Source: a virus
Lineage: Duplodnaviria; Heunggongvirae; Uroviricota; Caudoviricetes
Virus record (IMG/VR): IMGVR_UViG_3300028042_000001
Span: 92,944 to 156,943 of that record
Strand: one strand, 5' to 3'
Length of the DNA: 64,000 nucleotides
A program made the position numbers and the translations under genes. The notes beneath the pieces were generated by a model. That model saw only the letters and a program-made list of their open reading frames with translations, was not told the origin of the DNA and did not search any database. This document shows, in pieces, positions 4,161-37,600 of this stretch; positions within the stretch are counted from its first letter, which is position 1; each line of letters begins with the position of its first letter.

Positions 4161-4261
4161 ATTGATCTTTGAAAATAGAATATTGAAAGTATGGTATATC
4201 CATAACTATCACTATACCAATAAGTATAAATATTAATATACTTATAAAATAGGAGATTGTA

Positions 4262-10234: not shown

Positions 10235-10240
10235 AAATAT

Positions 10241-10316
10241 GCGTCTGTAGCTCAGTTGGAAGAGCACGAGATTTCTACTCTCGGTGTCGGAGGTTCGATC
10301 CCTCTCAGGCGTTCCA
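10241..10316 (+). tRNA. tRNA-Arg (anticodon TCT)
   Basis: acceptor GCGTCTG/CAGGCGT, D-arm TAGCTCAGTTGGAAGAGC, anticodon stem CGAGA/TCTCG with loop TTTCTAC, T-arm GGAGGTTCGATCCCTC, CCA. Confidence 0.75.
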
Positions 10317-10339
10317 TAATTAATATAAAGGAGGATGAT

Positions 10340-10840
10340 ATGGAAAGGGTGATAGTGTTAAATTATGATTATAGTTTTCTAAATGTTGTTTCTCCTGAAA
10401 AGGCTTTTTCTTATATAGCTCGTGGAAAGGTTATTGTTGAAAAAGTAGCGGATAAGGTCTTGACAACTGCTGAAAAATCATTTAAAATACCTGTAATTGT
10501 TCGGTTCTCTTATATGATAAGACAAATATATAAGAGAAAAATACCATGGAGTAAGCGTAATGTGTGTATCAGAGATAATTATACCTGTGCATACTGTGGT
10601 GTAAAAAGTGATATAATGACAGTTGATCATGTTATACCTAAAGCTCATGGAGGAAAAAACACTTTTGATAATTGTGTTGCATCATGTAAGAAATGTAATA
10701 ATAAAAAAGGTGATAAAACATGTAAAGAAATAGGAATGTTTCCTTCTCATAATAGAACACATCCTACTGTTTCTGACTTCATGCGATTATGGTATAAACA
10801 ATATAATGTAAATGATATTATAAAATCAATATGGGAGTGA
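10340..10840 (+). CDS. HNH endonuclease
   Basis: CAYCGVKSDIMTVDHVIPKAHGGKNTFDNCVASCKKCNNKKG HNH motif; RBS AAGGAGGA; the track ORF start at 10199 is translated tRNA sequence, so the start was moved to the ATG at 10340. Confidence 0.75.
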   Translation: MERVIVLNYDYSFLNVVSPEKAFSYIARGKVIVEKVADKVLTTAEKSFKIPVIVRFSYMIRQIYKRKIPWSKRNVCIRDNYTCAYCGVKSDIMTVDHVIPKAHGGKNTFDNCVASCKKCNNKKGDKTCKEIGMFPSHNRTHPTVSDFMRLWYKQYNVNDIIKSIWE

Positions 10841-16795: not shown

Positions 16796-17338
16796 ATGGG
16801 TAAATTATTTAGTCGTTTAGAATATGATCGTGATGTATTTTTAAAGAATAGGGATACTATAGCTCTTGCTACATGCAAACTTATTATTGGAGAAATTCAT
16901 CGTGATCCAAATAAAGATAGATCGGATAATAATGTTCTTAAAATATTAAAAGTATTAAGAAAAATGACATTAAAAAGTCCTATAAAAGATCCATTACTTA
17001 TTGATATGATTGATAAATATCTTCCTGCATTTATATCTAACATTGATGTTATACAATGGCTGAAATCTATTTATTCGTATGATGATATTTTGTCTATGAA
17101 TAAAAAGGCATATTCTATTATTGGAATAGCAAAACAACATTTTAAAGATAATGAAATAAATTCAAAATTTATTAAAGAATTTATTGATGATGTTTTGACT
17201 AAAGGAAAGGAATCATATAATAATGGTGGTGTTATTGTTCCTTATGAACTGAAATTAGATAGTGATATTGTAAATGAATTATTTAGTGCTACTCAATCTA
17301 AAAGAAAAGGAGTTAATATTAATGAAACATTCGATTGA
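16796..17338 (+). CDS. hypothetical protein (180 aa)
   Basis: ORF with GAGGG RBS. Confidence 0.45.
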   Translation: MGKLFSRLEYDRDVFLKNRDTIALATCKLIIGEIHRDPNKDRSDNNVLKILKVLRKMTLKSPIKDPLLIDMIDKYLPAFISNIDVIQWLKSIYSYDDILSMNKKAYSIIGIAKQHFKDNEINSKFIKEFIDDVLTKGKESYNNGGVIVPYELKLDSDIVNELFSATQSKRKGVNINETFD

Positions 17339-17612: not shown

Positions 17613-20156
17613 TTGTATACATTTTGTAAAAAATATGGAAATAAAATATTTCTTAGAGAACATAATTCACCAGAACCATCATCAATAACGAAACACCATT
17701 GGAATTTATATTACGAATCACCTCATGGCAAATTTTCTTCTATTAATGGTAAATCGTTAAGAAGAGATACATTTTCTACTGTTAGAGAAGCTGTTAAAAA
17801 TCAGAAAGAAAATGAAAAATATGTTAATATTTATGGTGCTAAGACATTTGGTTATCAGTATATAAGAGATGTATTTCTTAATAGCCCTCCTATATCTCCT
17901 TTAGATTTGTATATTGCTAATATAGATATAGAAACTGGAAGAGATAAATATGGTTATTCTAGTGCAGAGGATGCTCGATGTCCTATTACATCTATAACTA
18001 TTCATGATATATCAAGAGATATATATACTGTTTGGGGGTATCATATTGATGGTTATGCTCCAAAAAAAGATAATGTTAGATATATTAATTGTAGTGATGA
18101 AAAACATATGCTTGATAAATTTACGGTTTTTTTAGCATGTAGGCATCCAGATGTTATTACTGGATGGAATGTAGAACAATATGATATTACTTATATTATT
18201 AATAGAGTACATAATATAATGCCTCATAGTGATGAGATTATAAAATCTTTATCACCTTTTGGTATTGTTAATGAAAAAGAATCTCGTGATGCTTTTGGTA
18301 ATTCTCACCAAATATATGATATTGTAGGTATATCTATATTAGATTATTTACATCTGTTTAAAAAATTCACATATAAAACACCAGAAAATTATAAATTAGA
18401 TACTATAGCTAATATGATTCTCGGTGATAAAAAAATTGATTATTCTGAATATGATAACCTTCAGGATTTGTATAATAGAAATTATGAATTATTTATTGAT
18501 TATAATATAAAAGATGTTGAAATTGTAACAAGACTTGATCATAAATTAAAATTATTTGATCTTATTTTATCTGTTGCTTATAAAGCAGGAATAAATTATA
18601 ATGATGTTGTTAGTCCAGTTACTACATGGGATATATTAATATATAATGCTGTTATGGATCAGAATATTGTTCCTTCTTGTCGTATGCCTTCCAGTGAATC
18701 TGGACATTATGTGGGTGCTTATGTAAAAGAACCTATTCCGGGTATGTATAAATGGATTATGTCTTGTGATCTTAATTCACTTTATCCTCATTTACAAATG
18801 GGTATTAATATATCTCCTGAAAAACGAATATCAGATAATGAATTACCAAAAGAATTATCTGATCTTCGCAGTATGTTAAATGGAACAATATCTGGTATTC
18901 AATTACTTCTTGATGAAAAATTGGATACATCTATTTTACAACATTATGATGTTACTCTTTCTCCTAATGGACAATTTTATAAAAGGGATGCTGATGGCTT
19001 TATTCCTGTTATATTAGAGGGGTTGTATGATGAAAGAAAGGCTGTAAAACGGTCTATGCTTGATGATAAACAAAAGATGGAAGATGATAATACTGTAGAT
19101 TTATCTGATCAAATATCACAAAAAAATACACTTCAAATGGCTCTTAAAATTCTTATGAATTCTGAATATGGAGCTATGGCTAATAAATATTTTAGATATT
19201 TTGACCTCAGAAATGCAGAAGCAGTAACATCTTCAGGCCAATTAGCTATTATGTGGGTAGCAAAACATCTTAATATATTTCTCAATTCTATGTTAGAAAC
19301 AGAAAATAATGATTATATTATTGCTATTGATACTGATAGTGTTTATCTTAATCTTGAATACCTTGTTGAAAAAGGAATACCTAAAGGAACATCTGATGAT
19401 AACAAAGTTGAAATTTTATCTAGATGGGCTACACAAGTACTTGAACCTAAAATAGATAAAATATATGATAATTTAGCTCAATATGTCAATGCTCATAAAC
19501 AAAAGATGGTTATGGCTCGTGAGGTAATAGCTAATAAAGGCTTCTGGACAGGCAAGAAGCGGTATGCATTGAACGTTTATGATAATGAGGGTGTTCGGTA
19601 TGCAAAACCTCATACAAAGATTATGGGGCTAGAGTGTGTTCGTTCTTCTGTTCCTGAATTTTGTAGAAATAATATAAAAGATGGTATTATTAATATATTA
19701 ACAAAAGATGAGAAAATGCTTCAAGAATTTGTTAATAATATTAATAATGATTTTTTAAAGCAAAAACCTGAAGATATATCGTTTCCAAGAGGTACTAACA
19801 ATATAGAAAAATGGATAGGGAGTGATGGATTTCCAAAAAAAGGATGTCCTATTCATGTGAGAGGGTGTATTGTATATAATAAATATCTTGATGATAATGG
19901 ATTTATTGATGAAAGAATAAAATCAGGAGATAAGATTAAATTTTGTAATCTAAAACAGCCTAATATATTTAGATCTTATGTTGTATCTTTTCCTCCTGCA
20001 ATGAATAAACATTTTTATGAAGAATTAGTTGAAAGTATTGATTATGATAAACAATGGGAAGGAACATTTTATAAACCAATAAATTCTATAATGGAATGTG
20101 TTGGGTGGAGTGCAGAAGCAATTAATAAAATAGAACAATTAGGAGAGGCGTATTAA
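17613..20156 (+). CDS. family B DNA polymerase (T4 gp43-like), TTG start
   Basis: exo motif ANIDIETG; polymerase motifs CDLNSLYPH (motif A), KILMNSEYGA (motif B), IAIDTDSVY (motif C); no intein or intron interruption. Confidence 0.9.
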   Translation: MYTFCKKYGNKIFLREHNSPEPSSITKHHWNLYYESPHGKFSSINGKSLRRDTFSTVREAVKNQKENEKYVNIYGAKTFGYQYIRDVFLNSPPISPLDLYIANIDIETGRDKYGYSSAEDARCPITSITIHDISRDIYTVWGYHIDGYAPKKDNVRYINCSDEKHMLDKFTVFLACRHPDVITGWNVEQYDITYIINRVHNIMPHSDEIIKSLSPFGIVNEKESRDAFGNSHQIYDIVGISILDYLHLFKKFTYKTPENYKLDTIANMILGDKKIDYSEYDNLQDLYNRNYELFIDYNIKDVEIVTRLDHKLKLFDLILSVAYKAGINYNDVVSPVTTWDILIYNAVMDQNIVPSCRMPSSESGHYVGAYVKEPIPGMYKWIMSCDLNSLYPHLQMGINISPEKRISDNELPKELSDLRSMLNGTISGIQLLLDEKLDTSILQHYDVTLSPNGQFYKRDADGFIPVILEGLYDERKAVKRSMLDDKQKMEDDNTVDLSDQISQKNTLQMALKILMNSEYGAMANKYFRYFDLRNAEAVTSSGQLAIMWVAKHLNIFLNSMLETENNDYIIAIDTDSVYLNLEYLVEKGIPKGTSDDNKVEILSRWATQVLEPKIDKIYDNLAQYVNAHKQKMVMAREVIANKGFWTGKKRYALNVYDNEGVRYAKPHTKIMGLECVRSSVPEFCRNNIKDGIINILTKDEKMLQEFVNNINNDFLKQKPEDISFPRGTNNIEKWIGSDGFPKKGCPIHVRGCIVYNKYLDDNGFIDERIKSGDKIKFCNLKQPNIFRSYVVSFPPAMNKHFYEELVESIDYDKQWEGTFYKPINSIMECVGWSAEAINKIEQLGEAY

Positions 20157-21247
20157 TGAGTGTATTAGATAGAGTATTAAAATCAATAAACAATCCATAT
20201 GCAACAATAGCAAAGGATGGTTTAATATGTGGTGATATTTCTGGATATATAGATACAGGAATTTATACATTAAATGGTCTTATTTCTGGGCAAATGATTG
20301 ATGGAGGATTCCCAAAAGGAAAAGTAGTTGCTCTTGCCGGAGAAAAAGGTACAGGAAAAACTTTTATATTACTTAATTCTTTAAGAAAATATCTTGATTC
20401 AAATTTAAAAGCAGAAGTAATTTTATTTGAATCTGAAGGTGCTCTTACTAAAGAATTATTAATAGATAGGGGAATAGATATTAATCGTGTTGCTATTATC
20501 CCTGTTGCTACTGTAGAAGAACTTCGATATCAATCTCTTGTTATATTAGAAACATTAGAAGAATATTTGTCTGAAACCGGAGAATATCCTGAAGTTGTAA
20601 TGTGTTTGGATTCTCTTGGTATGCTAGGAACAGAATTTGAGCAAAATACATCTAGAACTAATGATAATAAAGCTGATATGGGTAAAAGAGCGCAGTTAAT
20701 CAAATCTGTTTTTAGAAATATCACTCTCAAATTAAGTCTTTTACAAGTGTCTATGATTATTACTAATCATACATACAAAGGTATGGGAAAATATGATCCT
20801 ACTAAAATGGGTGGTGGTCAAGGATTAGAATTTGCCGCATCTATTATTATTTTCCTTAATAAATCTGCTGTTCGTGAGGATTCTCCGTCTGGAAAAGGAA
20901 AAGATAGAATTAAACATCTTATAGGAAATAATATTACTTTTATTGTGCATAAAGGTAGAATGACTATCGAAGGATCAAGAGCTATTTTAGGACTTGATTT
21001 TAAGAAAGGTATTGATCAATATGCAGGATTGCTTCCTCTGCTTATTTCTAGTGGTGTGTTTGAAAAGAAAGGATCATGGATTAGTCATAATGGTGATAAT
21101 ATAGCTCAAGGTGATAAACAATTTTATAAAAATATTGATGAAATTATTAATAATGATATAATTACAGAATTAGAACCATATATTGTAGAAAAGTTTTGTT
21201 ATGGAGTAGTTGATAAAAATCAAAATAAGGAATCTGAAGATGAATGA
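20156..21247 (+). CDS. uvsX: UvsX/RecA-family recombinase
   Basis: Walker A LAGEKGTGKTF; block VMCLDSLGMLG..RAQLIKSVFR..IITNHTYKGMGK..KMGGGQG parallels T4 UvsX (DSLGNLA..INHTY..MGGG). Confidence 0.85.
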   Translation: MSVLDRVLKSINNPYATIAKDGLICGDISGYIDTGIYTLNGLISGQMIDGGFPKGKVVALAGEKGTGKTFILLNSLRKYLDSNLKAEVILFESEGALTKELLIDRGIDINRVAIIPVATVEELRYQSLVILETLEEYLSETGEYPEVVMCLDSLGMLGTEFEQNTSRTNDNKADMGKRAQLIKSVFRNITLKLSLLQVSMIITNHTYKGMGKYDPTKMGGGQGLEFAASIIIFLNKSAVREDSPSGKGKDRIKHLIGNNITFIVHKGRMTIEGSRAILGLDFKKGIDQYAGLLPLLISSGVFEKKGSWISHNGDNIAQGDKQFYKNIDEIINNDIITELEPYIVEKFCYGVVDKNQNKESEDE

Positions 21248-21516: not shown

Positions 21517-22005
21517 TTAATAACTATAACATAAATGGTGATTATATTTTGTGCAAATTCTTTGTATATTAGATGTTAATATGTTGAAAAATAATCCTGC
21601 TTCTTTAGCAGAATAGAATATTTTTCCGTTTATTATCCATTTTTTTGAACATGGATTGTTTTTTCCTGTATGATATATAATCATCTTTTTGATAGTATTT
21701 GGAGAATGTTTTTTTCCTATTGCTTTAAGTCTTATTTTATTTTTGGTTTCTATAGAATGATGTTTTCCGTACATAGGATTTTCTTTACCACATGCATAAA
21801 ATGATAATTGACCAGATGACATATATTTCCATGCGAACTCACAACCAGAATCACCAGTAAGCATAAACAACCATTTATGAAGAGCAATATGATGTTTTAA
21901 TGAAACACGAATAATATTACAAGGATCATCAACAAATTCCTTTGATTTATGTTTTAATAAACAACGAGGGGTGATATGATGCTTGTGATAAATACATTTA
22001 GACAT
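21517..22005 (-). CDS. HNH homing endonuclease with NUMOD-like repeats (Mob-like); only minus-strand gene
   Basis: [32 protein letters not shown] core plus repeated NPMYGKHHS / [14 protein letters not shown]3-like motifs; inserted between uvsX and the helicase. Confidence 0.7.
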
Positions 22006-22106: not shown

Positions 22107-23561
22107 TTGATACCAATTAGAATAGAAGAAGTAATCATCAACCAATTAATATATAATGAAGAATATTATAGAAAAGTATATCCTCATATAGAAAAAGATT
22201 ATTTTGGTGAGAGAATAGAATCTCTTTTATTTGAAGTAATTAAAGAATATGTTGATGAATATAAGGTGTCTCCATCTATAGATACAATATCACTTCTTAT
22301 CAATAAAAAAGATGGGATAAATGGAGACGAAATAGAAGAAATTAATGAATATATTAATGAGTTATTAACATCTCCTGCTAATTTTCCTAAAATTGATTCT
22401 ATCATAGATCAAACAGAGGATTTTTGTCAAGAAAAGTCTATGTATAATGCTATTGTTGATGCAATGGCTATTATTAATGGTGATGATACCAAACGGACTA
22501 AAAATACTATTCCTGAAATGATGAGAGATGCGTTAAAGGTTTCTTTTAATTCATCTATTGGTCTTGATTATTCAGAAGCAGAAGAGCGGTATGATAAACT
22601 GCATCAGCTTAGAAATAAATTAAAATTTGATATTGAAGCATTAAATATCATTACTAAAGGAGGTCTTGAAGATAAAACCCTTAATTGTGTTCTTGCTTCT
22701 ACAGGGGTAGGTAAGACTATTTTTATGTGCCATTGTGCCGCTTCTGCTCTTACTCAGGGAAAAAATGTTCTTTATATTACTATGGAAATGTCTGAAGAAA
22801 AGATTGCAGAACGTATTGATGCAAATCTTATGGATGTTGAAGTTGATGATTTTGAGCATATGGATAAAGATACTTTTGTTTCTAAATTCAAGAAAGTTGT
22901 TGATGGTAATGGATTTCTTAGCAAATTATTCGGTATAAAAAAGAAAAAGAAGTTAGGAAGATTATTTGTTAAAGAATATCCAACTGGTGCTGGTAATGCT
23001 GATCATTTTAGATTTCTTTTAGATGAATTACAACTCAAAAAAGGGTTTGTTCCTGATTTTATTGTAATTGATTATATTAATATTTGTTCATCTACTAGAA
23101 TTCTTCCCATGGCAGGATCATATGCATTTGTTAAATCTATTGCTGAAGAACTTCGTGGATTAGCTGTGGAATATAAACTTCCTATATTAACAGGAACACA
23201 AACAAACAGAGGAGGGTTTTCTAATTCTGATATTGATATGACTGATACTTCAGAATCTATCGGACTTCCACAAACATTAGATCTTTATATAGCTTTGATG
23301 TCTAATGATCAAATGGCTAAAGCTGGAAGAATTGCATTAAAACAGTTAAAAAATAGGTATAGAGATGAAAATAAGAATAGATATTTCTCTATTGGATTAG
23401 ATAAACCAAAAATGAGATTTTTTCATGTCGATGATTGGAATAAGAGTATGGATGACGAATCATCTCAAGAACTTAGACCTATAGAAGATGAAGATTTTGT
23501 AAATGTAGATACAAGTAATAAAATTAAAAAAACTAATAGATTTGAAGGAATTAATATATGA
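22107..23561 (+). CDS. replicative DNA helicase (T4 gp41 / DnaB-like), TTG start
   Basis: LNCVLASTGVGKTIFMC..GKNVLYITMEMSEEKIAERIDANLMDV matches the T4 gp41 Walker A / RecA-fold blocks; AAGGAG RBS. Confidence 0.85.
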   Translation: MIPIRIEEVIINQLIYNEEYYRKVYPHIEKDYFGERIESLLFEVIKEYVDEYKVSPSIDTISLLINKKDGINGDEIEEINEYINELLTSPANFPKIDSIIDQTEDFCQEKSMYNAIVDAMAIINGDDTKRTKNTIPEMMRDALKVSFNSSIGLDYSEAEERYDKLHQLRNKLKFDIEALNIITKGGLEDKTLNCVLASTGVGKTIFMCHCAASALTQGKNVLYITMEMSEEKIAERIDANLMDVEVDDFEHMDKDTFVSKFKKVVDGNGFLSKLFGIKKKKKLGRLFVKEYPTGAGNADHFRFLLDELQLKKGFVPDFIVIDYINICSSTRILPMAGSYAFVKSIAEELRGLAVEYKLPILTGTQTNRGGFSNSDIDMTDTSESIGLPQTLDLYIALMSNDQMAKAGRIALKQLKNRYRDENKNRYFSIGLDKPKMRFFHVDDWNKSMDDESSQELRPIEDEDFVNVDTSNKIKKTNRFEGINI

Positions 23562-23782
23562 ATAATATACAACATATAAAACCATTTTATGCTCCACCAG
23601 AAGTTCAAGATGATTTACGTGAAGATGGTTTAACGTTAATGGGAATTAATATATCAGGAAATTTTAAACATTATAATAAACGTCCTATGACTAAAAAAGA
23701 GATTGACAATATTATACAGATATTATATAATGTTCTTATTAATGAAAACAATTTATCAAGTGAATGGGATCAAACATCATAA
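23558..23782 (+). CDS. hypothetical protein (74 aa)
   Basis: ORF overlapping the helicase stop (ATGA). Confidence 0.35.
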   Translation: MNNIQHIKPFYAPPEVQDDLREDGLTLMGINISGNFKHYNKRPMTKKEIDNIIQILYNVLINENNLSSEWDQTS

Positions 23783-24651
23783 GGAGATATGTAATGATAG
23801 ATAAATGTATATATTGTATAGGAAACGATAAATATAATGAAATATCTGATGATTTATTGGTTAATTTCGGCCCTGCCGCTATATTTTGTCCTTATTGTGG
23901 TAGATGTTTAGAAAAAATAGATTATAAGAAGAAACAAAAACCTACAGTTAGATTAAGAGAAAATGGACTTGATACAGGAGAAACTGAAGAACATCATCCT
24001 GCATACGCTCAATTACAATTTTCTAGACAATCGGGAGGGTGTGATAATTTATATGGATCTGCTGTATCACATCAAGAAACAATTTCTATGCGTGTTAGTA
24101 GATCATATAAACATGTATCAAATTATTCTGAACGGTATTTTGCCGAACACACTCCTATTATTGAAATTAGGATGACTCATTCTCAGTTTTCACAGGCAAT
24201 AACTTCTATGAATATGGGTAGTGGTGTTCCTGTAACTCTTGAAATGTTAAAAGGTCAAAGATTTCCTAGATGTGAAGAAAAAACTGTTTCTGAAATAGCT
24301 AATGATGGATTAGATGAAACTTTTAATAATTTTGCTGATAAAATATCAAAAGGAGAACGTAGGCTTCATCAAATTATAGAAAAAAAGGGTACTATTCTAA
24401 AAAAAGAAAGAGAAGAAATTATCAATATATATAATATGTTGATGCAAGAGTTGAGAGATAATATACCATTTCTTCATAAGTGTATGGTTGAAGCTTATGA
24501 AAAAACTGCTCAAAGTTCTAAAGCGGATATAGAGGCATTTTATACGAATGCAATAATGCGGATGGGAGAAGAAGCAATAAATCATAAAAAAATAAATCAT
24601 ATATTAAATGATTCAGGAAGCCTTGATATTATTGATGTGGAGGAAATATGA
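23764..24651 (+). CDS. hypothetical protein with N-terminal zinc ribbon
   Basis: CIYCIGN..CPYCGRC pattern; 295 aa. Confidence 0.45.
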   Translation: MGSNIIRRYVMIDKCIYCIGNDKYNEISDDLLVNFGPAAIFCPYCGRCLEKIDYKKKQKPTVRLRENGLDTGETEEHHPAYAQLQFSRQSGGCDNLYGSAVSHQETISMRVSRSYKHVSNYSERYFAEHTPIIEIRMTHSQFSQAITSMNMGSGVPVTLEMLKGQRFPRCEEKTVSEIANDGLDETFNNFADKISKGERRLHQIIEKKGTILKKEREEIINIYNMLMQELRDNIPFLHKCMVEAYEKTAQSSKADIEAFYTNAIMRMGEEAINHKKINHILNDSGSLDIIDVEEI

Positions 24652-25385
24652 AATTAGCATTTGGTAGTGATTTCCATTTTGAGTTTTATCATAGTATAAT
24701 TGATGCAAAAAAAATGATATCAAAATGGAAATTTGATAAAGATACCGACATGATTGTTATAGCAGGAGATCTTCATGTTGGTGCTAAAAAAGTATTTAAA
24801 TTATTAACATTTATATATGATATACATAAAATTCCTATTATATATGTTCCCGGAAATCATGAATACTATAATTCATCATTTTATAGAGAAAATGATCATT
24901 TTTATAGAAAAGGTATAAGTCACGAAGGAAAATTTTATATTCTTTTACAAAATAGCGTATCATTTGGTGATAAGAAATTTTATGGATGTATGGGTAATAT
25001 TGATGGTTCTTATAAGCATATTTCTATAGATACTCATGGATCATTAAATGACTTCCATAAGATCAAAGACTTTAATAAACATGATGCTAAGGGAAGACGA
25101 GAATTTGATTTTTTGCTTAAAAATGTAGAAAAAGATTCTGTTGTTATTACTCACACCATGCCTTCACCTAAATGTATTTCAGAACGATATAAAGGGGATC
25201 ATTATAATCCTTGTTTTACTAATGATTGGTCTGAGATAATATACACAAATGAACCAAGAGTTTGGATTTGTGGTCATACTCATGATAGTGTTAATATACA
25301 AATTGATAATACTTTTGTTGTTGCTAATCCTTTTGGATATCCACATGAAAATGTTAATTGGGAATGGGTGAATATTCATGTGTGA
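24648..25385 (+). CDS. calcineurin-like metallophosphoesterase
   Basis: motifs GSDFHFE, AGDLHVG (GDxHG), PGNHEYY (GNHE), CGHTHD (GHTH). Confidence 0.75.
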   Translation: MKLAFGSDFHFEFYHSIIDAKKMISKWKFDKDTDMIVIAGDLHVGAKKVFKLLTFIYDIHKIPIIYVPGNHEYYNSSFYRENDHFYRKGISHEGKFYILLQNSVSFGDKKFYGCMGNIDGSYKHISIDTHGSLNDFHKIKDFNKHDAKGRREFDFLLKNVEKDSVVITHTMPSPKCISERYKGDHYNPCFTNDWSEIIYTNEPRVWICGHTHDSVNIQIDNTFVVANPFGYPHENVNWEWVNIHV

Positions 25386-25821
25386 TGACATATTAGAATT
25401 TCAGGGTGAATATAGATGGTTGTCTAATTTTTGGCCTGTAATTATACAATATGAAGGGTATAAATTTCCTTCTAATGAGCATTTTTATCAAGCTATGAAA
25501 TTTAAAGAAACTCGTTGGGATTTTTTTACTAAATGCAGAAATCCTAAAAAAGAAGCAAGGAAAATTCCCTATAATTATACACATAACCTATGGAATAAAT
25601 ATAAAGTTGGTATTATGTGGGCAGGACTTCATATTAAATTTCAAGATTATATATTAAAAGACAAATTATTAAATACTGGTAATGTTGAAATTGTTGAAGG
25701 TAATAGTTGGCATGATAATTTCTGGGGAAATTGTTTGTGTGATAAATGCAAGAATATTGATGGAGAAAATATTCTTGGAAAATATTTGATGTTGATAAGA
25801 GAGGAAATAAAAAATGGATAA
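25378..25821 (+). CDS. NADAR (YbiA/DUF1768) domain protein
   Basis: FQGEYRWLSNFWP..YKFPSNEHFYQAMKF signature of the NADAR family. Confidence 0.75.
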   Translation: MCDDILEFQGEYRWLSNFWPVIIQYEGYKFPSNEHFYQAMKFKETRWDFFTKCRNPKKEARKIPYNYTHNLWNKYKVGIMWAGLHIKFQDYILKDKLLNTGNVEIVEGNSWHDNFWGNCLCDKCKNIDGENILGKYLMLIREEIKNG

Positions 25822-26761
25822 TAAACGAAGATTTTTATTAACGCATTATGATCTTGATGGTGTTGCGGCTGATATTTTGATGTCTAACATGTATATGTTT
25901 GAAAAGAAGCATATGTGTGGCTACGCAAAAATAAAAGAGAAAATTGATAATGGAGAATTGAGTGGGTATGATTCTGGTGTTATTACTGATGTTAGTCTTG
26001 CACCAGAACAATTTTCTTTTATTTCTAAAGAATATAAAGATAAATTATTATATATTGATCATCATAAACCTAGTATTAATGCCGTTAGTAATAATGAATA
26101 TAAATCTACATGTGTTGTTGATACAACATTCAGTGCCTCTGGGTTGATATTTCAAACTTTTTTCAAGAAATTAAAAAAAGTTCCTCATGTTGTTGATTTT
26201 GTTATTGCAGTTGATGCTTATGATATGTGGAGAATAGATACCAATATAGATAATTTTAAGAAAGGGTATGATCTTAATGTTCTTTTTTGGAAATATGGAT
26301 ATTTTGATTTTTATGATCGTTTTTTTGATAATATGTCTTTTAACTTTTCAAGCACAGAAAAAAAATATATAAGTGATCATAAAAAAGAAAGAGATGATCA
26401 TATAATTCATTCTGATAAAACAGATTTCGGTAATAATTCTCTTTTGGTATTAGATGCTCCTGCTGATTATGTTAATGATTTTACTATTCAATTACCAGAT
26501 TATGATATATATTTTATGGTTTGTACGACTAGAGAAGGTACATTAACTCTTTCTATGAGATCCAAATTAAATGGAGTTGAAAGTGATCTTGGTAATGTAG
26601 CAAAAAATGCAAAAAATATGTTTGATTATATTATATCTGCTGGTGGTCATCCTAAAGCCGCTGGTATTGATTTTTTTGAAAATACATCTATTGATGATAT
26701 TCTTACTGTTGTTGAATATGTTAATGATACTATGGAAGCTAATGAGTTAATTCCATTTTGA
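25814..26761 (+). CDS. DHH/DHHA1 family phosphoesterase (NrnA-like)
   Basis: motif I THYDLDGVAAD, motif III IDHHKP, DHHA1 SAGGHPKAAG. Confidence 0.7.
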   Translation: MDNKRRFLLTHYDLDGVAADILMSNMYMFEKKHMCGYAKIKEKIDNGELSGYDSGVITDVSLAPEQFSFISKEYKDKLLYIDHHKPSINAVSNNEYKSTCVVDTTFSASGLIFQTFFKKLKKVPHVVDFVIAVDAYDMWRIDTNIDNFKKGYDLNVLFWKYGYFDFYDRFFDNMSFNFSSTEKKYISDHKKERDDHIIHSDKTDFGNNSLLVLDAPADYVNDFTIQLPDYDIYFMVCTTREGTLTLSMRSKLNGVESDLGNVAKNAKNMFDYIISAGGHPKAAGIDFFENTSIDDILTVVEYVNDTMEANELIPF

Positions 26762-27054
26762 ATAATCTTAATAAGAATCAAAAGAAATTTATTACTTATG
26801 CATTAAACCATTTTGGTGATGAATCTGATAATATACGATTAAAAGATTTAAATTCTTTTGCAAAAGATAATGATTTAATTCTTCCTACATCATTTTTAAA
26901 GAATCATTGCCGTAAAAATCAACAAACAAGAGGGTATTATGATTTGACTCTTGCAGGTATAAAACCAAAAATAAAATCAAAAGTAGAAGAATCATTATTG
27001 GAATTTAAAAGTTCAGAAAATGTGATTTTGGATACTTCAGCTTTTATTAAATAA
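26758..27054 (+). CDS. hypothetical protein (TTG start?)
   Basis: ORF only; followed by terminator. Confidence 0.3.
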   Translation: MNNLNKNQKKFITYALNHFGDESDNIRLKDLNSFAKDNDLILPTSFLKNHCRKNQQTRGYYDLTLAGIKPKIKSKVEESLLEFKSSENVILDTSAFIK

Positions 27055-27076
27055 AAAAAATAATTAATTATTTCAA

Positions 27077-27109
27077 GGGATATAGCATAAATGCTATATC
27101 CCTTTTTTT
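27077..27109 (+). terminator. rho-independent terminator
   Basis: GGGATATAGCAT..ATGCTATATCCC hairpin plus TTTTTTT. Confidence 0.65.
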
Positions 27110-27148
27110 GTTTGTTATAAATAATAGTATAAAATTAGAGGATAAAAT

Positions 27149-27376
27149 ATGTCAGTAGAAAAATCATATGAAGAATTTGTAATTATTCATGAAAAAAAGC
27201 TTATGTCTAAGGATGTTGATTCTGTAGAGAATGGCATTGTTAGTGTTATTAACAGAGCATCATCTATATTAGGAAATATAGATGATGGTGAGTTAGATAA
27301 AGTTAATGAATTGTTTGATAAAGGAATGTTATTATTAAAGAAAATACTTAACAAACATGATTTATATGAAATATGA
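27149..27376 (+). CDS. hypothetical protein (75 aa)
   Basis: ORF with GAGGA RBS. Confidence 0.35.
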   Translation: MSVEKSYEEFVIIHEKKLMSKDVDSVENGIVSVINRASSILGNIDDGELDKVNELFDKGMLLLKKILNKHDLYEI

Positions 27377-27888
27377 ATAAATTATTTAAAGAATTTATAT
27401 TAGAAATTGCTAGAATTGTTCGGTTTGATCAAGATATAGCAGATAATATACAAAAAACATACATATCTAAAAATTCAAAAAATGATAATAAAGATGTTTT
27501 GTTATTATATAATAAAATAAATAATATTGCTAAAAAATATAATGCTAAGATAGATAAAACATCTTTCATAGGTCATTTAAATGATAGAATAGTTGAACGT
27601 AATATTTCTTATGATGATATATTTAAATTATTTCTTAAAGTATCTAAACAAACATCATTTTTTGATGATTTATCAATCCAAAATAAAGGATATATAAATC
27701 ACCAACGAAGAAAATATGGCCCTCAAATTCTTTATCCTTCTAAAAATATACACATCGGAACAGAAATTACTAAAGAAAATGGAAAATATAATATAGTGGT
27801 TAGATCTGTAATGGGTAAATATAGTTCAGGAACTATAAAAAAATTAAAGAAATGGACACCAACACCAAAATTGTATTTTGTAAAATAA
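27373..27888 (+). CDS. hypothetical protein (171 aa)
   Basis: ORF, ATGA overlap with upstream gene. Confidence 0.4.
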   Translation: MNKLFKEFILEIARIVRFDQDIADNIQKTYISKNSKNDNKDVLLLYNKINNIAKKYNAKIDKTSFIGHLNDRIVERNISYDDIFKLFLKVSKQTSFFDDLSIQNKGYINHQRRKYGPQILYPSKNIHIGTEITKENGKYNIVVRSVMGKYSSGTIKKLKKWTPTPKLYFVK

Positions 27889-27889
27889 T

Positions 27890-28246
27890 ATGGATATATT
27901 AACAGAAGAAAATTATATAGGAGTTGCTATGCATCATTATGATAATATTCAATGTAATACTATTGAAGAATTTCAAAACGATATGTATAGGATTATTTGT
28001 ATAAAAAAATTAATAGACAGATATATATCTTCAGGAAACATAAATTTAAGACTTATACTAAACCATATAATTGTTATTAATAATTCTTTTGGAGAAATTA
28101 CATTTGAATTATTAAAACTAAGACTTGGAAATAAATATTATCCAGTGATCAAAGCGATTTTAGTATTTTTAAAATATATAGAGTCTGATATATGGAATGA
28201 AATACAAGAAGATTCTAAAATATTTAACGAACTTAGGAGATTATAA
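27890..28246 (+). CDS. hypothetical protein (118 aa)
   Basis: ORF. Confidence 0.4.
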   Translation: MDILTEENYIGVAMHHYDNIQCNTIEEFQNDMYRIICIKKLIDRYISSGNINLRLILNHIIVINNSFGEITFELLKLRLGNKYYPVIKAILVFLKYIESDIWNEIQEDSKIFNELRRL

Positions 28247-29019
28247 TGGCAGGGATAATTGATGCTATATATACATTTAGATTTTTAAAACTACTTTCTA
28301 CTAAATGGGAAAATACTGATGCTTTTAAGTTAGATATTATTGATAAAGATGGAAAACCCTTAAAGAAAAGTAAAGATTTAACAACAACAAAAGAGAAGAA
28401 ATCTTATACATCTTTTGTTCGTCTTGTTTTTAAATTGAAACGTTTAATGGGTACTATACCCGGAGGAAAATCAGCCGTTGCTCGTTATGGTGCGGCATTA
28501 GCATTATTAAAAGAACATAAAGAAGAGGTATGTCAAATGGGAATTAATTTCAACATCCTTACAGAAGGATTAAATAAATATATAAAAGAAGAGGTTTCTA
28601 CTGGAACTGGTGGTATAGAAGGAAAAGAACAACCTATCGGAAAAAAAGGCGAGATAAAAAAACGTAAAGATAATAAATCTAAACAAGAAGTGATAGATAA
28701 AGGAACAAAAGAATCTAATAAAAATGAAGAGACTAACTATTCATATCAAGTTATTGGAGACGTTGTTGTTCGTGTCGATGAATTAAAGCGTGTGGTAAAA
28801 AAACGAGTCCATGGAAATAAACGTCAAAAGAAACGAGAATATGTTCCTACTAAAAGAAGAACAAGAACTGGAAGAAAGAAACTTAGAGGAGGTCAAAAGG
28901 CGAAATGGAAGAGATCTCATAAGAAGGCATACAGAAAGGCTCATACAGGATCAGCGGCTCATAAAAGAAAACGATCTATGAAAAAGAGTAATAAATATAA
29001 TCATAGAGGAAAAAAATAA
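28246..29019 (+). CDS. hypothetical protein with extremely basic C-terminal tail
   Basis: C-terminal ~70 aa K/R-rich (KRQKKREYVPTKRRTRTGRKKLRGGQKAKWKRSHKK..). Confidence 0.45.
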   Translation: MAGIIDAIYTFRFLKLLSTKWENTDAFKLDIIDKDGKPLKKSKDLTTTKEKKSYTSFVRLVFKLKRLMGTIPGGKSAVARYGAALALLKEHKEEVCQMGINFNILTEGLNKYIKEEVSTGTGGIEGKEQPIGKKGEIKKRKDNKSKQEVIDKGTKESNKNEETNYSYQVIGDVVVRVDELKRVVKKRVHGNKRQKKREYVPTKRRTRTGRKKLRGGQKAKWKRSHKKAYRKAHTGSAAHKRKRSMKKSNKYNHRGKK

Positions 29020-29060
29020 TTGACATTTAATCGCTCATGATCTATAATTATAAGTTATGA
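29010..29060 (+). promoter_or_regulatory. sigma70-like promoter TTGACA-17-TATAAT embedded in a 14-bp-arm hairpin
   Basis: TTTAAATCGCTCAT / ATGAGCGATTTAAA inverted repeat flanks the -10 hexamer; immediately upstream of the primase gene. Confidence 0.5.
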
Positions 29061-30076
29061 GCGATTTAAACATAGACATTACATATATTGGAAGGTTATC
29101 TTCTAGAATTGATCAATTTAAAAAGGTTAGGAGAAATGTATGGAATGCCCGTTGTCCTATATGCGGAGATAGTAAAAAAAATAAATTCAAGAAAAGATTT
29201 TATATATTTCTTGACAAAGGCAAGTATTTCACTAAATGTCATAATTGCCCAGATGCTAATTATGAATTTTCTTTCTTTTTGAAAATTCATCACCCTGATT
29301 TATATAATGAATATCTTATTGAAAAATTACCCCAAAAAACATCATTAAAGAAAAATAGGTTTAAACATATAAAGGATATTGTTCCTAAAAAAATTCATTG
29401 TAATGGATTTGATTATAATAATTTAAAACGATTTAACGAATTAAATATATCACATCCTGCTAGAATTTATGTAGAAAAAAGAAAAATACCAAATAATTTA
29501 ATATATTATTGTGATAATTTTTCTTTATTTATAGATAGTTTAAATATAAATCATTATAAAATATCATACAAAAATTCAAATGAACCTAGAATAATCATTC
29601 CTTTTTATAGAGAAGATGGATTATCTACAGTATTTCAAGCAAGAGCATTTTCTAAACAAGAAGGACTTCGATATATAACTATTAAAGAAGATGATCAAGA
29701 GAGTAAAATATATGGTTTGGAAAGAATAGATAAGAGAAAGCCTGTATATTGCGTTGAGGGGCCGATTGATTCTGTTATGATACCAAACTGTATTGCTATG
29801 TCTGGAATATCCACAAGGCTTCCTGATGGTATAGATGAATATATATTTATATTTGATAATGAACCGAGGAATATTGATGTTGTTAAAAATATGAGAAAAC
29901 GATTAAGACAAGGACATAAAGTTGTTATAATGCCAGAAAGAATAAAATTTGATGATTTGAATGATATGAAAGTTAAAGGTGGTATGAGTTCAAAGAAAAT
30001 ACTTGACGTGATTAATTCAAACATATATAATGGTGATGTTGGTTATATGAAACTAAAAGAATGGAGCAGATTATGA
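29057..30076 (+). CDS. DNA primase (T4 gp61-like; Zn ribbon plus Toprim)
   Basis: RCPICGDSKKNKFKKRFY..CHNC zinc ribbon; EPRIIIPFY, RYITI, KIYGLERI, VYCVEGPIDSVMI, IFDNEPRN blocks parallel T4 gp61. Confidence 0.85.
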   Translation: MSDLNIDITYIGRLSSRIDQFKKVRRNVWNARCPICGDSKKNKFKKRFYIFLDKGKYFTKCHNCPDANYEFSFFLKIHHPDLYNEYLIEKLPQKTSLKKNRFKHIKDIVPKKIHCNGFDYNNLKRFNELNISHPARIYVEKRKIPNNLIYYCDNFSLFIDSLNINHYKISYKNSNEPRIIIPFYREDGLSTVFQARAFSKQEGLRYITIKEDDQESKIYGLERIDKRKPVYCVEGPIDSVMIPNCIAMSGISTRLPDGIDEYIFIFDNEPRNIDVVKNMRKRLRQGHKVVIMPERIKFDDLNDMKVKGGMSSKKILDVINSNIYNGDVGYMKLKEWSRL

Positions 30077-31487: not shown

Positions 31488-33434
31488 ATGGGATGTTTTG
31501 AAACAGACTTGCAACGATATATTCATATATCTAAATATGCAAGATGGATAGAAGAGGAAAATCGAAGAGAAACATGGGAAGAATCTGTGGGGAGATTTAT
31601 AGATTTCTGGGAAAATAAGAAAGTTGGTATAGGAAATGTGTCATTAATAGAAGATCCTGAAATTCTTGGAGATATTGAAAAAGCTATATTGAGATGTGAT
31701 ATAATGCCTTCTATGCGTGGTATGATGACTGCTGGAAAGGCTCTTGAACGGGATAATATTGCGCTTTATAATTGTACTGCAAGCGCTGTTATCCATCCTG
31801 CCATTTTTTCTGAGGCATTTTATATATTAATGAATGGTTGTGGTTTTGGTTTTTCTGTTGAAAGGCAATATATCAATGAATTGCCAGAAATTGCAGAAGA
31901 ATTGTTTGAAACAGAAACTACTTTAATCATTAGAGATTCAAAAATTGGATGGGCTACTGGATTGAAAGAATTGATTTCTATGTTATATAATGGACAAATT
32001 CCTAAATGGGATCTTTCTAAGGTTCGTCCTGCTGGTGCTCGTTTAAAAACCTTTGGTGGTAGAGCTTCTGGCCCTGAACCTCTTAATAAATTATTTATTC
32101 ATGTAGTATCATTATTTAAAAATGCTTCTGGAAGAAAATTAACTTCTATTGAATGTCATGATCTTATGTGTTATATTGCTGATACTGTTATTGTTGGATC
32201 TGTTCGTAGAGCGGCATTAATATCATTATCTAACCTTACTGATGATCGTATGAGAAGAGCAAAAGATGGACAATGGTGGATGGTTGCTCCTCATAGAGCA
32301 CTTGCTAATAATTCTGTATCATATACAGAAAAACCTGATCTAGATTCATTTTCGAAGGAGTGGAGAACTCTTTATAAAAGTAAATCAGGAGAAAGAGGTA
32401 TATGGAATAGTGAAGGTGCTAAAAAATTGTCAATAGAACAAGGAAGGCCAAATGCTGAAGATTATAATTTTATACCTAATCCTTGTGGAGAAGTATCTAT
32501 TCGTCATACCGGAGGCGTGTGTAATTTAACAGAAGTTATGATACGACCTAAAGATAGTCTTAATATGATAAAAAAGAAAATTAGACTTGCTACTATTATG
32601 GGAACTATTCAAGCAACATTAACTAATTTTCGTTTTTTGAGAAAGGTATGGAAAACAAATGCAGAAGAAGAGAGATTATTAGGTGTATCTTTGACAGGTA
32701 TTATGGATCATAAAATATTTAATAATCAATCATCTAAAAAAGAAATTAGTGATTGGTTTGGTATTGACTCTGATTTAGAAACAATACTTGATTATTTACG
32801 GGAATATTCACATAAAGTAAATAAACGATGGGCTAAAAAACTTAATATTAATAGTACAGGACATGTTTGTGTTATAAAACCATCAGGAACTGTTTCTATT
32901 TTGACAGGAACATCTTCTGGTATTCATCCTAGATATGGACAATATTATATAAGACGTGTAAGAAATGATAAAAAAGATCCTCTTTCTCAATTAATGATAT
33001 CAGAAGGTATTCCTTATGTTGATGAAGGAGATAAATATGTATTTTCTTTTTATGTCAAATCTCCTGATCATTCTGTAATTCAATGTGATATTGGAGCAAT
33101 GAAACAATTAGAAATATGGAAAATTTATAAAGAAAATTGGTGTGATGGTAATCCTTCTCAAACAATTTATTATAATGATGATGATTATTTCGCTATTGCT
33201 GATTGGTTGTGGAAAAATTGGGATGTTGTTGGAGGATTATCATTTTTCCCTTACACTGATGCATCTTATACTAATGCTCCTCTTGAAGAAATATCAGAAG
33301 AAATATATAATAAATCATTAGAAACATTTCCTAAAGATATAAATTGGGAAATGTTGTCTAATTTTGAACTGAAGGACAGTACAGAGTCTGCAATGACATT
33401 AGCATGTTCTGGAGATAATTGTTCGTTAGTATAA
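31488..33434 (+). CDS. nrdJ: ribonucleotide reductase, class II-like (NPCGE active site), single chain
   Basis: FIPNPCGEVSI catalytic Cys/Glu motif typical of class II RNR; 648 aa; no adjacent beta subunit gene. Confidence 0.75.
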   Translation: MGCFETDLQRYIHISKYARWIEEENRRETWEESVGRFIDFWENKKVGIGNVSLIEDPEILGDIEKAILRCDIMPSMRGMMTAGKALERDNIALYNCTASAVIHPAIFSEAFYILMNGCGFGFSVERQYINELPEIAEELFETETTLIIRDSKIGWATGLKELISMLYNGQIPKWDLSKVRPAGARLKTFGGRASGPEPLNKLFIHVVSLFKNASGRKLTSIECHDLMCYIADTVIVGSVRRAALISLSNLTDDRMRRAKDGQWWMVAPHRALANNSVSYTEKPDLDSFSKEWRTLYKSKSGERGIWNSEGAKKLSIEQGRPNAEDYNFIPNPCGEVSIRHTGGVCNLTEVMIRPKDSLNMIKKKIRLATIMGTIQATLTNFRFLRKVWKTNAEEERLLGVSLTGIMDHKIFNNQSSKKEISDWFGIDSDLETILDYLREYSHKVNKRWAKKLNINSTGHVCVIKPSGTVSILTGTSSGIHPRYGQYYIRRVRNDKKDPLSQLMISEGIPYVDEGDKYVFSFYVKSPDHSVIQCDIGAMKQLEIWKIYKENWCDGNPSQTIYYNDDDYFAIADWLWKNWDVVGGLSFFPYTDASYTNAPLEEISEEIYNKSLETFPKDINWEMLSNFELKDSTESAMTLACSGDNCSLV

Positions 33435-33894: not shown

Positions 33895-34704
33895 ATGAAA
33901 AATATTATTGGTATTATTTTAATAGGAGTATTTTGTTATTCCTCTTCTGCTGTTGCTTCAATAATGAATGATGATGGATGCCCTAAACAAACATGTGAGA
34001 CTATAGAAGTACATGAATCTCATACATACACAACAACAGAAGAGGTTGTTACTCATTATACATCTGAAGTTGTATCAGAATATCAAATTCAATGGGATAA
34101 TAATATTAATATTAATAATAGCGATAATAATAGCGATAATAATAGCGATAATAATAGCGATAATAATAGAAATAATAACAGTCGTTATAATGATATAAGA
34201 AGAACATGGAATAAAAACGGTACTTGTAGTGTTACTATGGATAGTAATCTGCATTCTGGCTGGCATAATAGATGGTCTTCTAATGATAATATCATAATTA
34301 GTAATATTAATGGTTTTACTCATTATGATATCAATGATATTAATGAATGCGCTTTTTATCTAAATGCGTTATCAACTAATAATAGAAGTGGTGGTAATAA
34401 TAGAAATGGTGGTAATAATAGAAATGGTGGTAATAATAGAAATGGTGGTAATAATAGTACCGGGTATTTATCACGAAATATATCATTCATTGATATATAT
34501 TCTACTAGCTTCTTTACAACATCACACACAGATTCTTATGATTATTTTTCTACTATATGTACTTATGATATAGATCCTTTCGAATGTCCTGAAAATAATT
34601 GTGAAGATGATAACTCCCCCGTACCTGAACCATCAACTATGTTACTATTTGGTGTTGGTATTTTCAGTATAGGATTATTTAACATAAAAAAAATAAAAAA
34701 ATAG
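33895..34704 (+). CDS. secreted tandem-repeat protein with PEP-CTERM-like C-terminal anchor
   Basis: signal peptide MKNIIGIILIGVFCYSSSAVASI; NSDN x4 (12-nt repeats) and RNGGNN x4 (18-nt repeats); C-terminus PVPEPSTMLLFGVGIFSIGLFNIKKIKK. Confidence 0.6.
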   Translation: MKNIIGIILIGVFCYSSSAVASIMNDDGCPKQTCETIEVHESHTYTTTEEVVTHYTSEVVSEYQIQWDNNININNSDNNSDNNSDNNSDNNRNNNSRYNDIRRTWNKNGTCSVTMDSNLHSGWHNRWSSNDNIIISNINGFTHYDINDINECAFYLNALSTNNRSGGNNRNGGNNRNGGNNRNGGNNSTGYLSRNISFIDIYSTSFFTTSHTDSYDYFSTICTYDIDPFECPENNCEDDNSPVPEPSTMLLFGVGIFSIGLFNIKKIKK

Positions 34705-37559: not shown

Positions 37560-37600
37560 TTGACATAAGAGATTGTATATGTTATAATCTCTTATGTCAA
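37560..37600 (+). promoter_or_regulatory. sigma70 consensus promoter TTGACA-17-TATAAT embedded in a 15-bp-arm hairpin
   Basis: TTGACATAAGAGATT / AATCTCTTATGTCAA perfect inverted repeat spans -35 through -10; sits between the cca stop and the next ORF. Confidence 0.5.

Follow-up and report, generated by a model that had tools for sequence, protein, structure and literature searches.

In bacteriophage T4, the slot between the genes for the replicative helicase (gp41) and the primase (gp61) carries dmd (61.5), tifA, and adfA (61.2), and has been termed an anti-toxin-antitoxin island (PMC9391042). Phage NADAR proteins of three unrelated clades (T4 gp30.3, Bas32, and Bas60) protect against DarTG1 and not against DarTG2 (PMC11825919); DarT1 ADP-ribosylates guanosine and DarT2 thymidine, and NADARs reverse the guanosine mark only (PMC11825919; PMC11125620). 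Among DHH phosphoesterases, the characterised NrnB enzymes, one of them from H. pylori, degrade RNA as 3'-to-5' exoribonucleases with a preference for 2-5-mers, and those tested did not cut c-di-AMP (PMC12709177). Here we analyzed a stretch of 64,000 nucleotides (hereafter, the window; positions 92,944 to 156,943 of IMG/VR record IMGVR_UViG_3300028042_000001) from an uncultured, AT-rich T4-like myovirus (G+C content 28.9%), in which three consecutive plus-strand genes between gp41 and gp61 encode a metallophosphoesterase (MPE), a NADAR protein, and a DHH phosphoesterase (hereafter, DHH). An initial annotation, made from the sequence alone, had read this trio as a candidate anti-defence island inserted between helicase and primase. 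The three ORFs lie exactly where that annotation had placed them. Our comparison suggests, with about an even chance of being right, that the region is a composite, in which a known counter-defence gene sits inside a replication-linked phosphoesterase pair, rather than a three-enzyme system.

The DHH protein had 36 metagenomic homologues (27-60% identity), and a profile search returned 196 cluster representatives at E<=1e-30. An IMG/VR scan with the DHH protein gave no match, and relatives were taken from the protein database and from contig look-ups. Locus contexts were fetched via DHH, via gp61, and via NADAR, and the genes of the gap were then mapped by tblastn. DHH was found to adjoin replication genes (gp41, and once gp32) in 12 related T4-like loci. 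It lies downstream of UvsX-gp41 in loci L001, L003, L004, L006, L009, L010, and L056 (the L002 contig begins after gp41), directly after gp41 in L056, and directly before gp32 in L057. The two close relatives that were fetched via gp61 and not via DHH, L022 and L024, both have DHH. Across the compared loci, the identity of gp41 to that of the window ranges from 82% down to 35%. DHH is thus stably kept with the replication genes across a wide range of lineages, and is not the inserted island gene that had been proposed.

What lies upstream of DHH differs between lineages. MPE was found there in about half of the related loci, either overlapping DHH directly (L003 and L022) or separated from it by one or more other small ORFs (L002, L006/L008, and L009), while DHH occurs without MPE in L001, L010, L004/L005, L056, and L057. 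NADAR was present at the MPE/DHH junction only in the window and in one other lineage (L058/L059), both with the arrangement MPE-NADAR-DHH. An earlier view of NADAR as unique to the window phage was dropped after a NADAR homologue search gave L058/L059 with the same three-gene order. Counted by lineage, MPE-DHH without NADAR was found in five and DHH alone in five more, which argues that MPE and DHH function independently of NADAR and against the trio as one linked unit, as initially annotated. MPE is a frequent upstream partner of DHH. Their junction serves as a small site of insertion that has several occupants, NADAR among them; NADAR is an accessory gene at this position. In L058/L059, the identity to the window is 57% for gp61, 60% for NADAR, 54% for MPE, and 34% for DHH. 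The low value for DHH, compared with 54-60% for its neighbors on the same L058 contig, points to faster evolution or exchange, and the DHH gene seems to be either faster-evolving or swapped between lineages. A DHH protein with 36% identity (P0024) and an MPE with 73% identity (P0039) were likewise each reported on a contig of 5,878 bp, which is probably one and the same contig.

The initial annotation had placed the trio in a variable slot between gp41 and gp61, and both the flanks and the variability were confirmed. The gp41-gp61 gap is variable among T4-like phages, and its length in T4-like contigs other than the window lies between about 130 bp and about 6 kb. In distant T4-like contigs (gp61 identity <=38%), the gap lacks MPE, NADAR, and DHH and can be as short as about 130 bp (L019, L027, and L030). 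Genes of 7-deazaguanine-type DNA modification (QueC-like, radical SAM, PTPS, GTP cyclohydrolase I, and TAGT) were observed in or beside the gap of distant relatives, at 3304-4778 and 12132-13979 of L004, 10721-12952 of L006, 11413-12429 of L009, and 9353-10246 of L056. In L004, a gene of staphylococcal-nuclease fold stands right after DHH. Beyond the T4-like phages, the DHH proteins of Herelleviridae (Nachito and LysYB1) are neighbored by triphosphate tunnel metalloenzyme or NUDIX genes and do not have the IPF tail described below; given this lack and the different neighbors, they are not directly informative on the T4-like DHH family.

The DHH protein has a catalytic set (H11, D13, D15, D59, D82-H83-H84, D137, R249, and G277-G278-H279) that is invariant in 37 homologues and includes the motifs HYDLDG, IDHH, and SAGGH. 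A single-sequence search with PF01368 gave 24.0 bits, under the cut-off of 28.1, and several family members have precomputed PF01368 and PF02272 matches. The protein matched phrog_4771 ('DHH phosphoesterase') at E=9e-18, and its AlphaFold2 model (pLDDT 93.9) adopts a two-domain DHH/DHHA1 fold. In a profile search against the PDB, the best match was an uncharacterised H. pylori protein (6mtz; E=8e-15, approximately 17% identity in the fold alignment), followed by the PAP phosphatase TM1595 (E=6e-6), and solved NrnA chains gave no match at E<=1. Fold matches in the PDB included PAP phosphatase, TM1595, NrnA, Rv2837c, GdpP, PggH, and RecJ/Cdc45 cores, with the GdpP and Rv2837c cores at E of about 1e-9. 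Six family members carry the JGI label COG2404 'NrnB/cAMP-cGMP phosphodiesterase', and the best viral fold match in BFVD was 'Oligoribonuclease NrnB [Bacillus phage AR9]'. Other viral fold matches came from jumbo phages and giant eukaryotic viruses, so a general nucleic-acid role fits better than an anti-immune-signal role.

The protein ends about 35 residues after GGH and is without the C-terminal extension of more than 100 aa that forms a basic patch in NrnB clade A (general exoribonucleases); NrnB proteins without the long extension prefer short substrates (PMC12709177). Unlike RecJ and archaeal RecJ-Cdc45, which have a catalytic core of over 420 aa and extra domains (OB fold or CID), it has 315 aa and two domains only (RecJ_archaeal, 23.4 bits vs a cut-off of 360), and the fold matches to these proteins cover the shared core only. 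Unlike GdpP and MAD, it has no extra membrane or sensor domains. By homology, DHH is probably NrnB-like and most likely digests very short oligonucleotides. Large phages and giant viruses often encode stand-alone DHH phosphoesterases, and we know of none with an assigned role.

The C-terminus of DHH may carry a further clue to its function. A terminal [IVL]PF-COOH was found in 28 of the 37 close and 21 of the 141 distant family representatives (49/178), with the consensus (E/S)(D/E)D-[IV]-P-F after a linker of variable length and with PPF variants in the family. In the AlphaFold2 model of the window protein, residues 312-315 are disordered. The motif ends none of the other ORFs of >=60 aa in the window or the fetched loci, and none of 66 MPE homologues. 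In E. coli, the SSB tip DDDIPF docks RecO, PriA, and other genome-maintenance proteins, and the phage SSB variant NDYPPF is functional (PMC5928155); our literature searches found no report of a tail of this type on a DHH enzyme. Judging from its sequence, we take the DHH tail to be a docking peptide. A more specific proposal, that an NrnB-like DHH uses an SSB-tip mimic to engage the pockets in which genome-maintenance proteins of the host or the phage bind SSB, is put forward tentatively. If true, the tail would either place an oligonucleotide-disposal enzyme at replication forks or compete with the host SSB for its clients during takeover. It would then be an SSB-tip motif kept across several T4-like lineages on an enzyme rather than on an SSB, and binding to SSB clients would plug a phage enzyme into the SSB interaction network of the host. 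Copying of the tail from the phage's own gp32 or gp43 was considered and ruled out: gp32 in L057 ends in ...ENFFNSLGK and gp43 in the window in ...QLGEAY.

The initial proposal of a counter-defence role for NADAR is well founded. The protein matched PF08719 at E=1e-21 (78.3 bits vs a cut-off of 35.1), with residues 11-145 covering profile positions 9-163 of 163, and also matched phrog_1017. It contains the motif FQGEYRWLSNFWP...EHFYQAMKF. In alignments, its E34 and K41 (in PSNEHFYQAMKF) fall on the catalytic pair of T4 AdfN, E36 and K43, and on the corresponding residues of YbiA and PnNADAR. Mutation of E36/K43 in T4 AdfN, the Glu and Lys that contact ADP-ribose, impairs the protein (PMC11825919). 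Window NADAR is 37% identical over its full length (56/150, residues 5-145) to bas32_0066 of phage Bas32, which was the sole match in the 100 kb searched of the Bas32 genome (MZ501075, 112,239 bp) and, as the only NADAR match in that part, is inferred to be the published AdfN-Bas32. The similarity to T4 gp30.3 (AdfN) is weak (24% identity, E=0.005) and confined to the N-terminal part. With phage NADARs of three clades neutralising DarTG1, the window protein is probably an AdfN-type counter-defence enzyme, namely, a guanine ADP-ribosylglycohydrolase acting against DarT1-type defences. The initial annotation had named the DarT2 product as the substrate, which needs correction: the DarT2 mark is on thymidine and is not removed by NADARs. 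A recent transfer of the gene was also considered and rejected, as its base composition (GC 0.273, and GC3 0.189 vs 0.11-0.17 in its neighbors) deviates too little.

As for MPE, it matched PF00149 (Metallophos) at E=1.4e-13 (52.2 bits vs a cut-off of 21.5) and phrog_1649 at E=4e-37. Five metal motifs (D8-x-H10, G40-D41, G69-N70-H71-E, H169, and G209-H210-x-H212) are invariant in 32 homologues, and the AlphaFold2 model has a pLDDT of 96. MPE is accordingly predicted to be an active di-metal phosphoesterase. The HMM check thus upheld the initial domain calls for all three proteins, MPE and NADAR above the Pfam cut-offs and DHH through phrog_4771, its fold, and the family motifs, and every motif initially quoted for the three was found. 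A single-sequence PDB search with MPE returned noise only, and a profile was required. The best match was M. tuberculosis PptH (6unc; profile E=1.6e-10 over the N-terminal part, TM 0.71), and further fold matches were Dbr1, GpdQ, Rv0805 (18th, TM 0.58), and SbcD/Mre11. Given identities of only 13-15% and unconserved substrate-binding regions, no substrate can be transferred from these structures. The CpdA model NF008359 reached 16.4 bits on MPE vs a cut-off of 225. PADLOC gave weak matches to candidate families only (PDC-S10 for MPE, and PDC-M42C), which were uninformative for the region. MPE was found in 145 cultured-phage records and this DHH family in 7, so MPE need not be paired with DHH. 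For one mycobacteriophage metallophosphoesterase, a contribution to immune evasion through damage to host DNA has been reported (PMC12287305).

The three genes belong to a longer transcription unit of five genes (p295, MPE, NADAR, DHH, and p98), which runs from a sigma-70-type promoter to a strong intrinsic terminator (Table 1). This promoter is one of four perfect TTGACA-17-TATAAT matches in the window, all on the plus strand, where 0.11 were expected from shuffles. Another stands directly upstream of gp61, and the four probably mark early transcription units of the phage. By analogy with T4 biology, from which this step is drawn, unmodified host RNA polymerase most likely transcribes the operon, which would then be expressed early in infection. 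MPE/NADAR and NADAR/DHH overlap by 8 nt each, read directly as ATGTGTGA and ATGGATAA, in keeping with the translational coupling that had been assigned to the trio. However, 4-nt overlaps likewise tie p295 to MPE and DHH to p98, so the coupling is not specific to MPE-NADAR-DHH.

In the composite that we favor, MPE and DHH would be the older residents of the locus, with MPE first and, in some relatives, directly overlapping DHH. DHH would be an exonuclease of the NrnB type and turn very short oligonucleotides into mononucleotides, its candidate substrates being RNA primers, abortive or excised, and the last fragments left when host nucleic acids are broken down. A source of short oligonucleotides and a use for mononucleotides are plausible, as T4-type RNase H, ThyX, and ribonucleotide reductase are all encoded in the window. 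Through its (D/E)-D-[IV]-P-F-COOH tail, DHH would be tethered to a genome-maintenance protein with a pocket for the SSB tip. The simplest guess for MPE is that, by stripping terminal or cyclic phosphates, it opens ends that are otherwise closed to a 3'-to-5' exonuclease. NADAR would be an accessory cassette at the MPE/DHH junction, where other lineages have other small ORFs, and would hydrolyse ADP-ribose from guanine bases in phage DNA, countering DarT1-type ADP-ribosyltransferase defences like AdfN of T4, Bas32, and Bas60. We infer the enzymatic activities, the partner of the tail, and the link between MPE and DHH from sequence and structure comparison.

Several observations weigh against this composite. 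For most DHH contexts, the query was DHH itself, so the adjacency to replication genes is partly a matter of ascertainment, and only L022 and L024 are independent in this respect. T4-like genomes are broadly collinear, so a conserved position alone is not proof of a replication function. The tail is missing in 9 of the 37 close homologues, that of the window (N-E-L-I-P-F) is not as acidic as the consensus of the family, and the two proteins checked as its sources, gp32 (L057) and gp43 (window), do not share it. The DHH superfamily includes c-di-AMP and cyclic-oligoadenylate nucleases, and the closest solved relative, 6mtz, is known as an uncharacterised H. pylori protein. The operon has an early promoter and lies in a slot that holds counter-defence genes in T4. 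Lastly, the best PDB match of NADAR is E. coli YbiA (E=1.7e-8), of a branch regarded as housekeeping, and the riboflavin-type model TIGR02464 scores 72.5 bits, marginally below its cut-off of 73.7.

DHH and/or MPE might hydrolyse nucleotide immune messengers early in infection (cyclic oligoadenylates, CBASS cyclic di-/trinucleotides, Pycsar cCMP/cUMP, or Thoeris ADPR derivatives), with NADAR as a second, independent counter-defence gene. The early promoter and the variable slot, an anti-toxin-antitoxin island in T4, would suit such a role, and so would a RelA/SpoT-type HD hydrolase in the same gap of L058, the fold matches of DHH to GdpP, Rv2837c, and PggH and of MPE to Rv0805 and GpdQ, and the weak match of MPE to PDC-S10. 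An anti-signalling role of phage DHH enzymes has also been predicted in print (PMC7824862). The initial annotation held that no DHH enzyme had been established as a phage anti-signalling factor, and this agrees with our literature searches, which found no experimental case. We nevertheless consider this explanation unlikely. The nearest sequence relatives of DHH are NrnB-like, and tested NrnB enzymes leave c-di-AMP uncut; DHH is kept beside gp41/gp32 over deep divergence and has an SSB-like tail, two features that would not be expected if it were a soluble scavenger of messengers; giant eukaryotic viruses encode homologous DHH proteins; and MPE falls far short of the CpdA model (about 16 bits vs 225). 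The initial view of the two enzymes as immune-signal degraders is thus unsupported, and the case of DHH warns against anti-signalling labels that are drawn from domain identity alone. Still less probable is a single ADP-ribose pathway, in which NADAR would free ADP-ribose and MPE (as an ADP-ribose pyrophosphatase) and DHH would break down ADP-ribose or its derivatives. Its appeal is that the three genes overlap and are co-transcribed, and that the order MPE-NADAR-DHH recurs in L058/L059 at only 34-60% protein identity, which suggests that the arrangement has been kept for some time; moreover, the Mn-dependent ADP-ribose pyrophosphatase-type structure 2nxf is among the weaker fold matches of MPE. 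Against such a pathway, ten lineages have MPE-DHH or DHH without NADAR, as counted above, unrelated small ORFs fill the same junction in L002, L006, and L009, validated phage AdfN proteins act alone in trans, and the best fold matches of MPE are PptH and Dbr1 rather than ADPRibase.

Two further explanations each have, in our judgement, a small chance of being correct. MPE could be a 2',3'-cyclic phosphodiesterase or 3'-phosphatase that heals RNA ends, with DHH degrading short fragments, in concert with phage RNA-repair enzymes against host anticodon and mRNA nucleases. The window encodes Rnl2, Rnl1, a CCA-adding enzyme, and RtcB, P-loop kinase (AAA_33) genes lie near UvsX in L006 and L009, and for calcineurin-like phosphatases of some jumbo phages, a role in RNA-end healing has been proposed (PMC7824862); the triphosphate tunnel metalloenzyme and NUDIX genes that adjoin Herelleviridae DHH both encode end-processing enzymes. 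However, the RNA-repair genes of the window are 15-30 kb away and unlinked to the operon, no kinase gene was found beside the operon in the window (a 180-aa ORF at 16796-17338 has no Pfam match), and the best fold matches of MPE are neither Pnkp- nor lambda-phosphatase-like. As regards DHH, this explanation overlaps with the composite. NADAR, for its part, could be an N-glycosidase of the YbiA type with a housekeeping task, namely, the removal of reactive intermediates of the riboflavin pathway or of comparable damaged metabolites, and have no part in counter-defence. The YbiA match and the near-threshold TIGR02464 score agree with this, as does the annotation or fusion of many phage homologues as GTP cyclohydrolase II / ribA-ribD. 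Yet the gp41-gp61 region contains no riboflavin (rib) gene, the neighbors of NADAR being MPE and DHH; the protein shares 37% identity with the Bas32 enzyme, which is validated against DarTG1; YbiA-type NADARs, YbiA included, also hydrolyse guanosine-ADPr in vitro (PMC11125620); and the patchy, accessory distribution of the gene fits a counter-defence function.

Table 1 Coordinates of features discussed in the window
Feature	Position	Strand	Evidence or remark
HNH endonuclease gene	1514-2167		
HNH endonuclease gene	4262-4867		
Rnl2-type RNA ligase	8444-9454		
HNH endonuclease gene	10199-10840		
180-aa ORF	16796-17338		
gp43 DNA polymerase	17613-20156	+	
UvsX	20156-21247	+	
HNH/NUMOD3 homing endonuclease	21517-22005	-	Between UvsX and gp41
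gp41 replicative helicase	22107-23561	+	Left flank of gap; DnaB_C E=1e-14; phrog_19 E=8e-109; 45% identity to cyanophage gp41
Sigma-70-type promoter, perfect TTGACA-17-TATAAT	23703-23731	+	Exact-match scan; 33 nt upstream of p295
p295, first operon gene	23764-24651	+	phrog_6452 E=2e-39; N-terminal CxxC...CxxC zinc-ribbon-like motif
MPE	24648-25385	+	245 aa; PF00149
NADAR	25378-25821	+	147 aa; PF08719
DHH	25814-26761	+	315 aa; phrog_4771, fold
DHH C-terminal tail N-E-L-I-P-F-COOH	26741-26758	+	Short linear motif
p98, last operon gene	26758-27054	+	tblastn matches in relatives
Intrinsic terminator	27075-27104	+	13-bp stem, 4-nt loop, T-run; also delimited as 27075-27114
p171	27373-27888		Sub-threshold RegB match
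p257	28246-29019		Directly upstream of primase
Perfect promoter	29020-29048	+	Exact-match scan
gp61 primase	29057-30076	+	Right flank of gap; phrog_47 E=6e-64
Ribonucleotide reductase	31488-33434		648 aa
269-aa ORF	33895-34704		PEP-CTERM motif
CCA-adding tRNA nucleotidyltransferase	36165-37556		
Perfect promoter	37560-37588	+	Exact-match scan
Rnl1-type RNA ligase	43710-44804		
T4-type RNase H	45733-46737		
HNH endonuclease gene	57198-57992		
RtcB-like ligase	57989-58681		
Perfect promoter	63171-63199	+	Exact-match scan

The outer genes of the operon are shared with several relatives. Homologues of p295 lie upstream of MPE in L002, L058, and L059, and p295 is present in 92 cultured-phage records, every one of them annotated as hypothetical; searches with it gave neither a Pfam nor a PDB match. 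Homologues of p98 were located by tblastn directly downstream of DHH in L001, L002, L003, L010, L022, L024, and L058. The protein aligns solely with the N-terminal half of the 186-201-aa homologues in relatives, with full-length counterparts at 8982-9575 of L001, 2721-3290 of L002, 2919-3479 of L003, and 8926-9531 of L010, and it appears truncated because the terminator stands where the remainder of the gene would be. The 197-aa homologue in L001 has no Pfam match.

The remainder of the gap, which holds 10 ORFs in the window, includes two further genes of note. Directly upstream of the primase, p257 is 54-72% identical over the aligned stretch in close relatives and its C-terminus is an extremely basic, Lys/Arg-rich stretch some 70 aa long. 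No family matched p257, which might bind DNA as an accessory protein of replication. A second gene, p171, has a sub-threshold match to the T4 endoribonuclease RegB (PF10715, E=9e-5, 23 bits vs a cut-off of 27), and its position is taken in L058 by the RelA/SpoT-type HD domain protein (PF13328). As regards the flanks, gp41 of the window has at most about 46% identity to any cultured phage, the best being cyanophages S-CAM7 and S-SSM7. A megablast search of the region against cultured phages gave a 140-bp gp41 stretch of cyanophages as the sole match, so the region is without a close cultured relative.

Elsewhere in the window, the set of RNA-repair genes is unusually full, and no polynucleotide kinase-phosphatase was identified among the window ORFs scanned. 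The HNH/NUMOD3 homing endonuclease gene between UvsX and gp41 has a counterpart in the same place in L010 (5204-5737, minus strand), and four further HNH endonuclease genes were found in the window. The ribonucleotide reductase genes of L002 (9087-10737) and L003 (8581-10843) contain inteins with LAGLIDADG domains, and that of the window appears to be intein-free. A 269-aa ORF carries a C-terminal PEP-CTERM sorting motif (PF07589, 27.4 bits vs a cut-off of 20.7). This signal belongs to exosortase-bearing Gram-negative bacteria and is odd in a phage; the ORF is a possible clue to the host.

MPE resembles PptH and the calcineurin-like phosphodiesterases Dbr1, GpdQ, and Rv0805 in its di-metal fold and in all five motifs, and differs from them in its low identity and in substrate-binding regions that are not kept. 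DHH is like the NrnB nanoRNases (COG2404; B. subtilis, H. pylori, and B. thuringiensis; Myers et al. 2025, PMC12709177) in being a stand-alone DHH+DHHA1 protein of the short form with DHH and GG(G)H motifs. In contrast to these, it is phage-encoded and belongs to a family with a conserved [IV]PF-COOH tail, which is unmentioned in PMC12709177 and missing from the 6mtz C-terminus visible in the alignment. The tail resembles the bacterial SSB tip in that acidic residues in a row precede [IVL]-P-F at the free C-terminal end of a disordered stretch of variable length; unlike the SSB tip, it is borne by an enzyme and not by an OB-fold DNA-binding protein, and in the window a single acidic residue stands close to IPF. 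The linkage to gp41/gp32 and the SSB-tip-like tail make a replication-coupled function of DHH directly testable.

NADAR is similar to AdfN of T4 (gp30.3), Bas32, and Bas60 (Johannesman et al. 2025, PMC11825919), which are also stand-alone phage NADARs of about 150 aa with a catalytic Glu and Lys 7 apart and have an accessory distribution among related phages. AdfN of T4 lies beside gene 30, whereas window NADAR is in the gp41-gp61 gap and leans to the YbiA branch. If its assignment is correct, the validated AdfN class would extend to an uncultured, AT-rich T4-like lineage from environmental metagenomes. Its presence in the slot where T4 keeps its own anti-DarT factor suggests a recurrent home for anti-toxin genes. 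The window and the 61.x island of T4 (Srikant et al. 2022, PMC9391042) share the same helicase-primase slot, early-expressed in T4 and most likely so in the window, and a factor against DarT1, adfA in T4 and, probably, NADAR in the window. The T4 genes, however, encode small inhibitor proteins without enzymatic domains, whereas the slot in the window contains predicted enzymes, two of which are conserved rather than variable.

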